In this document: positions 503 to 4,923 of the stretch, piece after piece | Position numbering within the stretch: position 1 is the first letter of the stretch | How the letters are laid out: each line of letters opens with the position of its first letter | Assembly: GCA_043819375.1 (NCBI GenBank) | Contig: JBDREV010000121.1 | Coordinates: forward strand, 1-6,235 | Direction of reading: 5' to 3' | DNA from: Candidatus Woesearchaeota archaeon | GTDB taxonomy: Archaea > Nanobdellota > Nanobdellia > Woesearchaeales > GW2011-AR9 | DNA: 6,235 nt | Notes under the pieces: model-generated | The model's database searches: none | The model's input: the letters and a program-made list of their open reading frames with translations, nothing else | Told to the model about the DNA's origin: nothing | Translations under genes and position numbers: made by a program

Positions 503-1834
503 ATGACCTCAGAAAAAAAGATAAAATTTGTACAAGAACTGGCCAAGAAGGCCCAGTCTTATCCCGTGATTGCTGTGGTCGATATGCAGAGTCTTCCTGC
601 TCGTCAGCTGCAGAATATGCGTGCTCAGCTGTATAAAAGAGGTATTGAATTGATTATGGCCAGAAAGAGGCTGTTAGAACTTTCTTTGAAAAATTCTCAG
701 AAAGAGAACATTACTGCACTTATTGAGAAGATGAGAGGAATGCCTGCCTTAATTTTATCTAAAGAAAACCCCTTCTTACTTTACTCCACTTTGCAAAAAA
801 GCAAATCACAGGCCCCTGCCAAGGCCAATCAGATTGCGCCTAAAGATATTGTAGTCAAAGCGGGAGGAACCAATTTTGCTCCCGGTCCAATTATTTCAGA
901 ACTGGCTAGTGTAGGGATTAAGACTAAAGTAGAAGGGGGCAAGTTGGCTATCGTCAACGATGCAACTGTAGCTAAAGAAGGAGCTATTATCACTGCTAAG
1001 CTAGCTGAAGTGCTCAAGCGTCTGAATATTCAACCGATGGAAATAGGATTGAATGTAGTTGCGGCTTGGGATAATGCGATCATCTTTTCCGCTAAACAAC
1101 TACATGTTGACGAAGAAGAGTATTACAACAATATTGTGACTGCCTTCCAGGAAGCCCTCAATCTGGCGATGGAAGTGGCCTATCCAACTACAGAAACAGT
1201 TGAGTTATTATTACAAAAAGCTTTCAGGGATTCAAAAGCTGTGGCTTTAGAACAGGAGATTTTTACTGATGCGACCACTGAAGAGATTTTGGCCAAGTCA
1301 GAACGGCAGGCTTTGTCATTGAAAGAAGCTGCTAGTCTGGAGATTCCAGAGAAAAAAGAACAGCCAAAAGCTGAAGTGAAACAGGAAACTCCAAAAGAAG
1401 AGAAACAGCCAGAAGTTAAAGAAGAAGTTAAAGTAAAAGAGTCTGTGAAAGAGATAAAAAAAGAAGAGAAACCAGTGGAAGAAAAAGCTGAAGAGAAGAA
1501 AGAAATAAAGAAAGAGAAGCCTGCAGAAAAACCAATCGAACCGAAGCAGGAAGAAAAGAAACCTGCTGAAGAACCAAAACAGGAAAATCTAAAACCAGCT
1601 GCTGAGCCTTCAGAAGCTGACAAAGAAGATCTCCCTTCGGCAGAAGAGATGATCAAGGCTACTCAGGAGAAATTTGCTCCTAAGAAGATTGAACCAAAAG
1701 TTGAAGATAAACCTTCAGCTGAATCTCTAGTAGATGAAGAGTTGAAAAAAGCTGACGCAGAAAAGCCCCCTAAAGAGGTTCAGGAAGTAGAGGCGCTCTA
1801 CGAAAAGCTTAAGAAACAGGGTTCTCTCAAATAG
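503..1834 (+). CDS. rplP0: ribosomal stalk protein P0 / uL10 with an unusually long K/E/P-rich C-terminal extension
   Basis: ATG 503 lies 1 nt after the uL1 stop, and GGTGA 489-493 is an SD-like site. The N-terminal roughly 280 aa look like archaeal P0 ([36 protein letters not shown]..., [30 protein letters not shown], then helical spine region). The gene sits between uL1 and P1. At 443 aa it is longer than the usual archaeal P0, which I recall as roughly 280-350 aa. Confidence 0.9.
1340..1831 (+). repeat. low-complexity K/E/P-rich coding tract (P0 residues about 280-443)
   Basis: Direct reading gives [82 protein letters not shown]... This is purine-rich DNA with degenerate KEEKP/PKQEE-like repeats. 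The same composition creates the long spurious antisense ORF 1180-1656. Confidence 0.85.
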
Positions 1835-3084: not shown

Positions 3085-3630
3085 TTAAAACTTTTCTAGA
3101 ATATCACTCTTGCTGATCAACCCTCTGACCTCTCCTTTCTCTGCAACCAACACAATCGAATTTTCCTTTAATAATTCTAGGATAATCTTTTGGCTGGTTT
3201 CCAAAGAGATAATCGGTGGGGAATCATCCATCACTTCTTTCACTTTCAGTTCTGCAATATTCTTCCCCTCAGAGATATTTTCCAGGATTATCTTTTCATT
3301 GACCATGCCGCTGATCTTCTTCTGGTCAAGAACCGGCAGCTGAGAGATCCCTTTCTCTTTCATCAGTCTGATCACTTTTTTGATTATATCATTAGGCTTG
3401 ATGAAGATGACTCTCCTGTTCATCAGATCCTTAGCTTTCAGTTCCTCTTTCTCCTCTAATTCATTCAATGCTTCAAAGATTCTCTTGACTTTAGAATAAG
3501 TGGGCTCAATCTTTCCGGATTCAATCTTAGCGATCAGGCTTTGAGACACTCCTGCTTTTACAGCAAGCTCTTTCTGGTTGATTCCTAATCTGTTCCTAAT
3601 CTTTTTGATCTGTTTCAATTCGTCCAGCAT
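3085..3630 (-). CDS. transcriptional regulator: N-terminal XRE-type helix-turn-helix plus C-terminal CBS domain pair (COG3620-like)
   Basis: LGINQKELAVKAGVSQSLIAKIESGKIEPTYSKVKRIFEAL is a classic HTH_3/XRE motif. Two CBS-like repeats follow (DLMNRRVIFIKPNDIIKKVIRLMKEKGISQLPVLD... and VKEVMDDSPPIISLETSQKIILELLKENSIVLVAEKGEVRGLISKSDIL). The stop codon is 2 nt from the convergent coiled-coil gene stop. Confidence 0.85.
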   Translation of the reverse strand: MLDELKQIKKIRNRLGINQKELAVKAGVSQSLIAKIESGKIEPTYSKVKRIFEALNELEEKEELKAKDLMNRRVIFIKPNDIIKKVIRLMKEKGISQLPVLDQKKISGMVNEKIILENISEGKNIAELKVKEVMDDSPPIISLETSQKIILELLKENSIVLVAEKGEVRGLISKSDILEKF

Positions 3631-3650
3631 AACTAGGCAGTAATTAAAAT

Positions 3651-3660
3651 TATTTATAAA
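3651..3660 (-). promoter_or_regulatory. TATA box for the HTH-CBS gene; predicts a leaderless mRNA
   Basis: The minus strand reads TTTATAAATA. The centre of the box is about 26-27 nt upstream of the A of the start codon (3630), which is the canonical archaeal TATA-to-TSS distance. No SD-like sequence lies between them. The box is nearly symmetric, so it could also fire toward metK. Confidence 0.5.
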
Positions 3661-3678
3661 TATTCCTATGAGAATATT
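3659..3678. promoter_or_regulatory. perfect 7-bp inverted repeat AATATTC-N6-GAATATT; candidate operator in the divergent regulator/metK intergenic region
   Basis: AATATTC (3659-3665) and GAATATT (3672-3678) are exact reverse complements separated by CTATGA. The repeat abuts or overlaps the regulator TATA box and lies 13 nt upstream of the metK-proximal TATA box. The background is AT-rich, so chance occurrence is not negligible. Confidence 0.35.
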
Positions 3679-3690
3679 GTTTTCAAGAGA

Positions 3691-3700
3691 TTTTATATAT
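3691..3700 (+). promoter_or_regulatory. TATA box candidate for metK
   Basis: TTTTATATAT is preceded by the purine-rich AAGAGA (BRE-like). The predicted TSS is near 3722, giving a short leader that contains GAGGT (3722-3726) 7 nt before ATG 3734. Confidence 0.45.
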
Positions 3701-3733
3701 CAACAGTCCAGCGAAAAATGAGAGGTAAACAAA

Positions 3734-4923
3734 ATGACAAATTATCTTTTTACATCAGAAAGTGTTACTGAAGGTCACCCAGATAAAATTCAATAGGTTT
3801 CTATTGGATGTCTTGAGTGAGTGACCAGATTTCCGACGCTATTTTAGATGCAATGATTAAAGACGACCCCAATAGCCGGGTTGCAGTAGAGTGTTTGAAT
3901 AAAACCGGATTTGTAGTAGTAGCCGGAGAAGTGACTACTAAAACATATGTTGATATCCAGAAATTAGTCCGGCAGACAATTCTTGATATCGGTTATGACA
4001 AACCGGAATATGGTTTTGAAGGTTCCACCTGCGGAGTGCTCGTGGCAATTTCAGAACAATCTCCAGATATCTCCCAAGGTGTGACTGAAGGAGAAGGATT
4101 GCATGAGGAGCAAGGAGCAGGAGACCAGGGCTTGATGTTTGGCTATGCGACTAATGAAACTCCAGAATACATGCCTCTACCAATCATCCTGGCGCATAAG
4201 CTGACCAAGAGATTGGCTTCTGCTCGTAAAAGAGGAGAAATCTGGTATTTACGTCCTGATGGAAAATCACAGGTTACTGTTGAATATGAAAACGGAAAAC
4301 CAAAGCGTGTTGATACTGTAGTCATTTCTACCCAACACCATCCCGATGTTGATCTGGAAACGATCCGCAGGGATGTGATTGAGAAAATTATCAAGCCCAT
4401 CTGCCAAGAATGGATTGATGAGAGCACAACTTATCATGTCAATCCCACCGGTAAATTTGTGATCGGCGGTCCCGTAGGTGATGCGGGCTTGACTGGCAGG
4501 AAGATCATTGTCGATACCTATGGGGGACATGGATCTCATGGGGGTGGATGCTTCTCTGGAAAAGATCCTTCCAAGGTAGATCGTTCAGCTTCATATTATG
4601 CTAGGTACGTCTCCAAGAATATTGTGGCTGCTGGATTAGCTGGTAAATGCGAAGTGCAGGTGGCTTATGCTATCGGCGTAGCCCAACCAGTCAGCATCTT
4701 GGTAAACACTTTTGGCACAGGAAAGATCCCTGATGAAAAGATTGCGGAGCTGGTCAGGAAAGTATTCGATTTCCGTCCTAAAGCGATTATCGAACAGCTG
4801 AACTTGAGAAGACCGATCTACAAGAAAACTGCTGCCTACGGACATTTCGGCAGGGATGATCCAGATTTCACTTGGGAGAAAACAGACAAGGCAGAAGTGT
4901 TGAAGAAGGAAGCTGGGATTTAA
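3734..4923 (+). CDS. metK: S-adenosylmethionine synthetase, bacterial/eukaryal MetK type. Two coding segments (3734-3786 and 3816-4923) are separated by a 29-nt stop-containing intervening sequence. It is a pseudogene if that sequence is not removed.
   Basis: Segment 1 (frame 2) encodes [18 protein letters not shown](IQ*). Segment 2 (frame 1) encodes (V)[25 protein letters not shown]...[23 protein letters not shown]...[12 protein letters not shown]...[29 protein letters not shown]...[23 protein letters not shown]...TAAYGHFGR. Together they cover every MetK signature I know, collinear with E. coli MetK. The joined product is 386 aa. Stop is TAA 4921-4923. Confidence 0.85.
3787..3815 (+). other. 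putative 29-nt bulge-helix-bulge (BHB) type intron inside metK
   Basis: The inner helix is 3788-3796/3801-3809 (9 bp, GUUU loop, contains the TAG). The first bulge is AAA 3785-3787. The central 4-bp helix is AGAU 3781-3784 / GUCU 3810-3813. The second bulge, UGA 3814-3816, is on the opposite strand. Outer pairing is UCAC 3775-3778/GUGA 3817-3820, or GGUCAC 3773-3778/GUGACC 3821-3826. The equivalent positions of the two bulges are 29 nt apart, which is the length needed to restore the frame and the [13 protein letters not shown] motif. Confidence 0.55.

Follow-up and report, generated by a model that had tools for sequence, protein, structure and literature searches.

A predicted tRNA-type intron in the bacterial-type metK gene of DPANN archaea

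The locus and its split metK gene

The window, a stretch of 6,235 nucleotides (nt) analysed here at its full length, belongs to a Candidatus Woesearchaeota archaeon (contig JBDREV010000121.1) and carries a metK gene, for S-adenosylmethionine synthetase, that is interrupted by 29 nt within the lysine codon of its GHPDK active-site motif. It represents an archaeal locus of the DPANN type, and encodes the ribosomal proteins L1, L10/P0 and L12, a DUF7121 coiled-coil protein, a divergently oriented HTH_3+CBS regulator, metK, an open reading frame (ORF) with no assigned identity, S17e, Alba and a Dus fragment. The neighbours of metK are archaeal (L1, L10/P0, L12, S17e and Alba), and the homologues of the gene, which are 83-92% identical, bear Woesearchaeota or Nanoarchaeota labels. 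The predicted spliced product matches structures of bacterial-type MetK over its entire length (E = 5e-161) and shows 92% identity with the intact relative P0001.

The gene is read in two frames. The first runs from ATG 3734 to TAG 3794-3796 and encodes approximately 20 residues, with the stop codon located inside the 5' arm of a hairpin. The second extends from GTG 3817 to TAA 4921-4923 (368 residues) and is closed on its 5' side by TGA 3814-3816; a TGA is present in each of the three frames, at 3814, 3818 and 3822. The removal of positions 3787-3815 generates a gap-free ORF for a bacterial-type MetK of 386 residues, with the predicted junction GATAA/AGTGAGTGACC. An earlier note on this DNA had described the split gene together with its stops, helices and bulges, and every one of these sequence statements was confirmed in the window. 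The elements referred to below are the following.

3722-3726, plus strand: Shine-Dalgarno-like GAGGT, 7 nt 5' of the metK start, read from the sequence and kept in the related loci L001 and L003
3734-3786, plus strand: metK exon 1, ending with AA of the GHPDK Lys codon, as placed by the bulge-helix-bulge (BHB) cut rule, bulge nucleotides 2/3 (PMC2738675)
3773-3778, plus strand: 5' strand of the outer exon-exon helix, GGUCAC (Gly and His codons), pairing with 3821-3826
3781-3784, plus strand: 5' strand of the central helix of 4 base pairs (bp), AGAU (Pro third base and Asp codon), pairing with 3810-3813
3785-3787, plus strand: 5' bulge AAA, which is the GHPDK Lys codon and does not vary among the 22 sequences; predicted cut 3786/3787
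3787-3815, plus strand: predicted intron, 29 nt, with same-site inserts of 29-32 nt in 21 other archaeal metK genes
3788-3809, plus strand: intron hairpin of 9 bp (3788-3796/3801-3809) with loop GUUU (3797-3800); 7 of 9 pairs show compensatory changes
3810-3813, plus strand: 3' strand of the central 4-bp helix, GUCU (intron), covarying with the synonymous positions 3781 and 3784
3814-3820, plus strand: 3' bulge UGA (3814-3816; predicted cut 3815/3816) and unpaired exon GUGA
3816-4923, plus strand: metK exon 2, comprising the third base of the Lys codon followed by VSDQISDA..., with stop TAA 4921-4923
3821-3826, plus strand: 3' strand of the outer exon-exon helix, GUGACC (Ser/Cys, Asp and Gln codons), with GAC in 22 of 22 sequences

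No match to Rfam was found in the window at gathering score, and ARAGORN, run on the window and on 19 loci, detected no tRNA genes.

Recurrence of the insert and integrity of the interrupted genes

An insert of 29-32 nt occupies the identical codon in 21 further metK genes of DPANN archaea, which gives a set of 22 sequences that consists of the window, contig L003, 17 GTDB species and three metagenome contigs (L148, L150 and L152). The GTDB species were obtained by scanning one genome per species for a pattern with GHPDK and DQISD 30-60 nt apart; they are labelled Woesearchaeota, Nanoarchaeota/Nanoarchaeia, Aenigmatarchaeota or plain archaeon, and all of them have a 29-32-nt insert. The protein P0034, 91% identical to the window product, starts with MSLVSDQISD, and its contig, L003, contains the same 29-nt insert, with the predicted junction GATAA/AGTTAGTGACC. 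A second protein search, conducted with an Aenigmatarchaeota-like seed, revealed that 8 of 120 clusters are truncated exactly at the insert (MSKICDQ, VSRICDQ, MCDQ and the like), and the insert is present in the DNA of the three truncated clusters L148, L150 and L152. The closest intact homologue, P0001, which is syntenic (L001 and L002), carries no insert. The comparison of metK loci among relatives yields cases both with and without the insert, as well as compensatory changes in the helices.

Three genomes of the set (L004, L012 and L016) are titled 'uncultured Methanosarcinales archaeon' and contain a Woesearchaeota-like intron-bearing metK; these labels look unreliable, as MetK does not support them. 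A metagenome scan with the reverse-complement pattern TGGTC...YTTRTCNGGRTGNCC, which leaves the Gly codon free, returned 120 loci, all of them intact ordinary metK genes and mostly bacterial, its 5-nt anchor being too weak. A scan of viral contigs with a tighter pattern gave 0 matches. A search for half-BHB motifs combined with the joining of ORFs in some 30 DPANN loci produced 130 mostly spurious matches, among which the metK sites alone stood out and no second intron-bearing gene appeared.

In the motif region, L003 deviates from the window by three substitutions, two of which lie inside the insert. Because L003 derives from another sample, a sequencing or assembly artefact, which the earlier note had considered as a way to overturn its proposal, is ruled out; the insert is present in 22 independent assemblies, L003 among them. 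A wider possibility is that the 29 nt are a DNA-level lesion, or such an artefact, and that metK is a pseudogene. The stops in all three frames and the truncation of public gene calls, such as P0034 and P0121, would be expected in that case. On the other hand, the 22 assemblies represent several DPANN lineages, and the exons are intact. After excision, metK is intact, with a length of 385-436 residues, in every case in which the reading reaches the end of the gene; the genes that cannot be followed so far are those of L010 and L011 (end of the available DNA), L017 (run of N) and L014 (probable intein, then contig end). The claim that the remainder of the gene has no other lesions therefore holds for the window and for all metK genes readable to the end. 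The intron-bearing genes display dN values (nonsynonymous divergence) of 0.08-0.30, with dS (synonymous divergence) of 0.8-1.9 or saturated, and a dN/dS ratio of about 0.1 unless dS is saturated, which indicates that the remainder of metK is under strong purifying selection and has retained its function. The insert itself is more conserved than synonymous sites, since 27 of 29 intron bases are the same in the window and L003, while exon 2 is only 75% identical with saturated dS, and it covaries with synonymous positions of the exons. A pseudogene is, in view of these data, extremely improbable.

One gene of the set has a further interruption. The metK of L014 (CAYXOT010000113.1, 3' of locus position 1223) has, besides the BHB-type insert, a protein insertion after ...GRHGGGAF/CISGDAMV..., which contains a LAGLIDADG domain (PF14528, 4e-20) and shows a weak match to intein splicing. 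This insertion is probably an intein, in which case one gene would harbor both an RNA intron and an intein.

Translation could alternatively restart at GTG 3817, so that the gene would be split or truncated at its N-terminus and would produce a 368-residue MetK minus the first 18 residues, perhaps complemented by the 20-residue peptide. A GTG or an ATG is often found at or near the boundary of exon 2, and gene callers yield proteins that begin with MSKICDQ... or MCDQ.... Such a product, however, lacks GHPDK, which is conserved in all homologues, and the residues encoded by exon 1 are strictly conserved in all 22 sequences. There is no ribosome-binding site 5' of 3817, and neither the RNA covariation nor the purine of the 3' bulge (see below) is explained by a restart. 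We consider this arrangement very improbable.

The positions of the stop codons bear on a third alternative, programmed ribosomal frameshifting across the insert. The two frames differ by -1/+2, and in 3 of the 19 tabulated sequences (L003, L013 and L020) no stop interrupts the target frame as far back as the Lys codon. In the remaining 16, which include the window, no position exists at which both frames are open, because the last stop of the target frame lies after the first stop of the zero frame. This bears out the statement of the earlier note that no single-site frameshift can join the frames of the window. Moreover, the insert of L012 has a length of 30 nt with in-frame stops, and a frameshift product would contain about 10 extra residues inside the active-site motif. 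The probability of frameshifting is accordingly negligible.

RNA fold and predicted splice junctions

The intron-bearing genes have a common layout, GGYCAY-CC-NGAY-AAA-[hairpin 8-10 bp]-RUCY-[3 nt]-RUN-[U/A]GY-GACC, with an in-frame stop located 1-3 codons past AAA in 19 of 19 tabulated sequences; the three sequences that were added later likewise carry an in-frame stop there. In the alignment of the 22 sequences, 94.5% of the cells are paired, compared with 84.3% after shuffling (reached in 0 of 500 shuffles), and sliding the partner by 1-3 columns lowers the value to 26-44%. Double-sided changes occur in 58 cells versus 14.8 expected (0 of 500 shuffles). The central 4-bp helix is paired at 100% in 19 sequences and at 98.9% in 22. 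Where the third base of the Pro codon faces the last base of the helix (column 21/56), the pairs GC, AU, GU and UA are found 9, 8, 4 and 1 times, respectively; at the third base of the Asp codon (column 24/53) they are CG (8), UG (8) and UA (6), with A solely opposite U. As the pair types vary jointly, synonymous positions of the exon covary with bases of the intron. In the hairpin, 7 of the 9 pairs show compensatory double changes, and RNAalifold independently predicts the succession of a helix, a 3-nt bulge and a 4-bp helix. The part of the fold composed of the 4-bp helix, the AAA bulge and the hairpin is shown by covariation.

The outer helix GGUCAC/GUGACC, paired in 96% of the cells, hardly varies and is therefore untestable by covariation; codon bias was used instead. 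Its Asp codon is GAC in 19 of 19 sequences (22 of 22 with those added), although the search pattern allowed GAY, versus 42% gene-wide, and its His codon is CAC in 17 of 19 versus 36% gene-wide, the three added sequences being in agreement. The Lys codon of the bulge is AAA in 19 of 19 (22 of 22 with those added) compared with 60% gene-wide, AAG accounting for 40% of Lys codons. Eight intronless relatives have mixtures of GGA/GGG/GGT, CAT/CAC, AAA/AAG and GAT/GAC at these codons. The earlier note had offered two outer helices, of which GGUCAC/GUGACC is the conserved one. The other, UCAC/GUGA, was rejected, as it is disrupted in L003 and is not conserved in other relatives.

The 3' side is less regular. 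Seven unpaired nucleotides (3814-3820) face CC 3779-3780 and form a 2x7 internal loop, and no conserved partner for 3817-3820, nor any pairing that would close the 3' bulge, was found with RNAalifold or in the 22-sequence alignment. Since the outer helix does not close the 3' bulge, the canonical hBHBh' architecture is not attained, and the element fits only the relaxed, hBH/HBh'-like class of motifs (PMC4090602, PMC5829648). A canonical 5' site combined with a relaxed outer and 3' side had been proposed from the window, and the comparison of the relatives upholds this view. The endonuclease EndA of DPANN archaea, when equipped with an L3 loop, has been associated with non-canonical tRNA introns (PMC5829648). 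The DNA analysed here contains neither endA nor rtcB.

A stable hairpin with an in-frame stop just past the break, present in 19 of 19 sequences, is also reminiscent of translational bypassing, in which the ribosome would take off before the hairpin and land some 30 nt downstream on an uncut mRNA, as in gene 60 of phage T4. Where the 3' bulge is AAA, this triplet recurs in the right place and frame for such a hop, as verified in 7 of 19 sequences. The other 12, including the window, have UGA, UUA or AAG as the 3' triplet and have no productive matched pair. Furthermore, the stop lies 1-3 codons away from AAA instead of adjacent to it, and bypassing leaves unexplained both the covarying 4-bp helix between exon and insert and the exon-exon helix. 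We know of no report of bypassing in archaea, and judge it a very unlikely account of these genes.

The splice junctions were predicted from the rule that EndA cuts between nucleotides 2 and 3 of the bulge; the source of this rule also documents relaxed motifs for cbf5 pre-mRNA (PMC2738675). When the cut is placed past the second bulge nucleotide on both strands, as in the earlier proposal, an intact GHPDK[V/M/I][C/S]DQ is obtained in 22 of 22 sequences, in full agreement with it. The 3' bulge ends in A in 21 sequences and in G in one, its first two nucleotides being variable (UG, UU, AA or AG); because this last nucleotide is a purine, the joined codon AA/R always encodes Lys. The codon that follows the junction is always RUN (Val, Met or Ile), with an invariant U, a free third base and no pairing partner, and this pattern is a coding signature. 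The first triplet of the hairpin, unlike the RUN triplet, covaries with its pairing partner.

Intronless relatives allow for a direct comparison with the predicted junctions. The spliced sequences of L008, L010 and L004 are identical over the GHPDK-DQISD motif to their nearest intronless homologues P0062, P0115 and P0027, with the predicted products GHPDK-M-CDQ, GHPDK-V-CDQ and GHPDK-M-CDQ, respectively. The intronless L147, which encodes P0062, shares 99% of the protein core and 90% of the nucleotides with L008, and in the alignment of the two L147 lacks exactly the predicted 31 nt, in one gap at ...GAT AA[-]A ATG TGT...; the placement of this gap is ambiguous over 4 nt, and the BHB cut falls within that range. 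At the positions of the outer helix, L147 departs from L008 with GGA, CAT and GAT. An alternative junction, AAA AUU/UGU, which keeps the first hairpin codon in exon 1, was discarded; it predicts Ile for L008, L010 and L004 alike, where the nearest intronless relatives have Met or Val, and L147 is not reproduced.

Based on the covariation, the codon constraints and the junctions, positions 3787-3815 very probably constitute a tRNA-type intron of the relaxed bulge-helix-bulge class, located in a pre-mRNA that a DPANN archaeon transcribes from its bacterial-type metK gene. We infer that the RNA is cut and ligated, with EndA and RtcB as the enzymes. Relaxed splice motifs are substrates of broad-specificity EndAs. 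In the proposed mechanism, GGUCAC of exon 1 would pair with GUGACC of exon 2, and NGAY, formed by the last base of the Pro codon and the Asp codon, would pair over 4 bp with RUCY of the intron, leaving the AAA Lys codon as a bulge. The rest of the intron would adopt a hairpin of 8-10 bp, with the 3' splice site 2 nt beyond the 4-bp helix on the other strand. EndA would then cleave each strand past the second nucleotide of its bulge, at 3786/3787 and 3815/3816, and an RtcB-type ligase would join the exons to give GAU AA/A GUG AGU GAC, which would recreate the codon of the active-site Lys of GHPDK and the 386-residue MetK. As translation of the unspliced mRNA terminates at the in-frame stop in the hairpin after some 20 residues, the synthesis of MetK would depend on splicing.

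Excision at the same boundaries by a nuclease and a ligase other than EndA and RtcB was weighed as well. The 3' site departs from the canonical bulge, which leaves room for another nuclease, but the 4-bp helix, the 3-nt bulge on the 5' side and the 3' cut 2 nt past the helix reproduce the spacing that is the signature of EndA substrates. No other archaeal enzyme with an EndA-like specificity is known to us, and we regard the participation of different enzymes as improbable.

Several observations weigh against the assignment as a BHB-type intron. The minimum free energy (MFE) fold of the window (-19.3 kcal/mol, z = -2.4, matched by 6 of 200 shuffles) is not a BHB; the hairpin and the GGUCAC/GUGACC helix are present in it, but the bases between them pair otherwise, with the consequent loss of the 4-bp helix, and the BHB folds of the window reach -12.7 and -16.6 kcal/mol. 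The local fold put forward earlier is reproduced by the MFE in its hairpin and outer helix, and not in its central helix. The 3' site is the 2x7 internal loop described above and not a clean 3-nt bulge, and to our knowledge strict EndAs of the alpha4 or alpha'2 type leave motifs with such a 3' site uncut. The intron lies close to the start of the ORF, 52 nt into it, and exon 1 would be unwound by ribosomes during translation. The codon GGT was forced by the search pattern in 17 of the 22 sequences, which leaves 5 sequences as a test of the U-A pair in the outer helix; GGT is found in 4 of these 5 pattern-independent sequences. The exception, L152, has GGC together with UGC, and two of the six outer-helix pairs are mismatched. 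Finally, L148 (JAIYHS010000019.1, 1451-1532) has GCCC and not GUCC as the 3' strand, which introduces an A.C mismatch into the central helix, the sole exception among the 22.

Considered in isolation, moreover, the window provides weak evidence for a BHB motif. Deletions of 29 nt reopen the frame from 11 start positions (3786-3796); the restoration of the conserved motif by excision, which the earlier note had called exact, stands as regards the frame, while its specificity to the BHB cut does not, as all 11 deletions work. A shuffled window contains, on average, about 0.4 half-motifs made up of the 4-bp helix, the 3-nt bulge and a 9-bp hairpin, or 2.7 when the stem has 7 bp. Because of these 11 frame-restoring deletions, the non-BHB MFE and the chance half-motifs, the significance of the finding rests on the comparative data instead.

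Surroundings, significance and known systems

The genes around metK show several features of their own. The L10/P0 protein encoded at window positions 503-1834 has an unusually long C-terminal tail rich in Lys, Glu and Pro, with 443 residues in total compared with 402 in L001. The divergent gene for the HTH_3 and CBS-pair regulator (window 3085-3630, minus strand) adjoins metK, as it does in L001/L002, L141, L142, L144-L146, L148 and L150. In the intergenic region between the two genes lies a perfect palindrome (AATATTC-N6-GAATATT, 3659-3678) that L001 and L003 share. It is a candidate operator for the control of metK through the sensing of an adenosyl ligand, possibly S-adenosylmethionine (SAM). 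Between metK and the HTH-CBS gene, most of the intronless relatives (L141-L147 compared) contain an extra ORF of about 100-130 residues that has no match in Pfam and is lacking in the window (3631-3733), L001 and L003.

The public gene calls P0034, P0121, P0123, P0146, P0147, P0149, P0154, P0159 and P0237 start at or just before exon 2. The calls for intron-bearing metK genes do not contain the GHPDK motif, which represents a systematic annotation error. As gene callers truncate these genes (P0034, P0121 and the eight clusters), metabolic reconstructions from these metagenome-assembled genomes would perceive a MetK without its active-site motif or a pseudogene.

If spliced, the metK element would be the second of its rare kind: among archaeal protein-coding genes, introns of the endonuclease type have so far been described essentially in cbf5 alone, from Crenarchaeota and relatives. 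It is conserved across long evolutionary distances and would bring a new superphylum, DPANN, and a central metabolic gene of bacterial type to this class of introns. The constraint that coding and RNA structure impose on the same bases offers a system for studying the gain and loss of introns and the specificity of DPANN EndAs, and the intron prompts one to ask how splicing can take place while transcription and translation are coupled.

It is conceivable, albeit unlikely, that the intron is more than a passive passenger, either because a race between splicing and translation gates the supply of SAM or because the excised RNA of 29-32 nt, likely circular, has a function of its own. The position 52 nt into the ORF, the conservation of the intron and the in-frame stop of the hairpin (19 of 19) imply that the output of MetK could depend on a race of EndA and RtcB against translation. 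If true, its location at one codon in genomes labelled Woesearchaeota, Nanoarchaeota and Aenigmatarchaeota would suggest that the intron was gained after the bacterial-type gene had entered archaea, and that it then spread or was repeatedly and precisely lost.

Among known systems, T4 gene 60 resembles metK in that its coding sequence is interrupted by tens of nucleotides, with a hairpin and a stop codon at the 5' edge of the gap. Bypassing in that gene, however, requires matched take-off and landing codons and an adjacent stop, and most metK sequences fail on both counts. The splicing of HAC1/XBP1 mRNA in eukaryotes likewise removes a small, structure-defined intron (26 nt in XBP1), changes the frame and employs a tRNA-splicing ligase (tRNA ligase/RtcB). 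It differs in the endonuclease, which is Ire1, in its recognition of twin 7-nt loops and not of a BHB, and in being regulated by stress.

A closer likeness is found in the non-canonical tRNA introns of archaea (Marck & Grosjean 2003; PMC5829648; PMC4090602), with hBH, HBh' or bulge-helix-loop motifs, which similarly combine one well-formed site, made of a 4-bp helix, a 3-nt bulge and a flanking helix, with one degraded site. The length of the metK intron, 29-32 nt, falls within the 11-175 nt range of tRNA introns, and the presumed enzymes, EndA and RtcB, are alike. By contrast, the host of the metK intron is an mRNA, and the strands of the exon helix are made of codons, so that structure and coding constrain the same bases.

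The searched literature, covered in full text by combining BHB with metK, MAT (methionine adenosyltransferase) or SAM synthetase, contained no report of the metK intron. Papers on EndA from 2018 and 2025 cite cbf5 alone for archaeal pre-mRNA introns. The literature is thus consistent with the novelty asserted in the earlier note, with cbf5 as the sole cited archaeal pre-mRNA intron as late as 2025. The cbf5 intron of Crenarchaeota (Watanabe 2002; Yoshinari 2006; Yokobori 2009; PMC2738675) has no sequence relationship to that of metK, and the two are not homologous. Its host is an RNA-modification enzyme of TACK archaea, whereas metK encodes a bacterial-type metabolic enzyme in DPANN, and its splicing was demonstrated by cDNA sequencing and EndA assays, whereas that of metK is inferred. 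Both introns are nevertheless short, reside in a protein-coding gene and have BHB-like borders of the relaxed type with predicted cuts between bulge nucleotides 2 and 3. Both, furthermore, lie within the codon of an active-site residue and show a patchy distribution with intronless close relatives.

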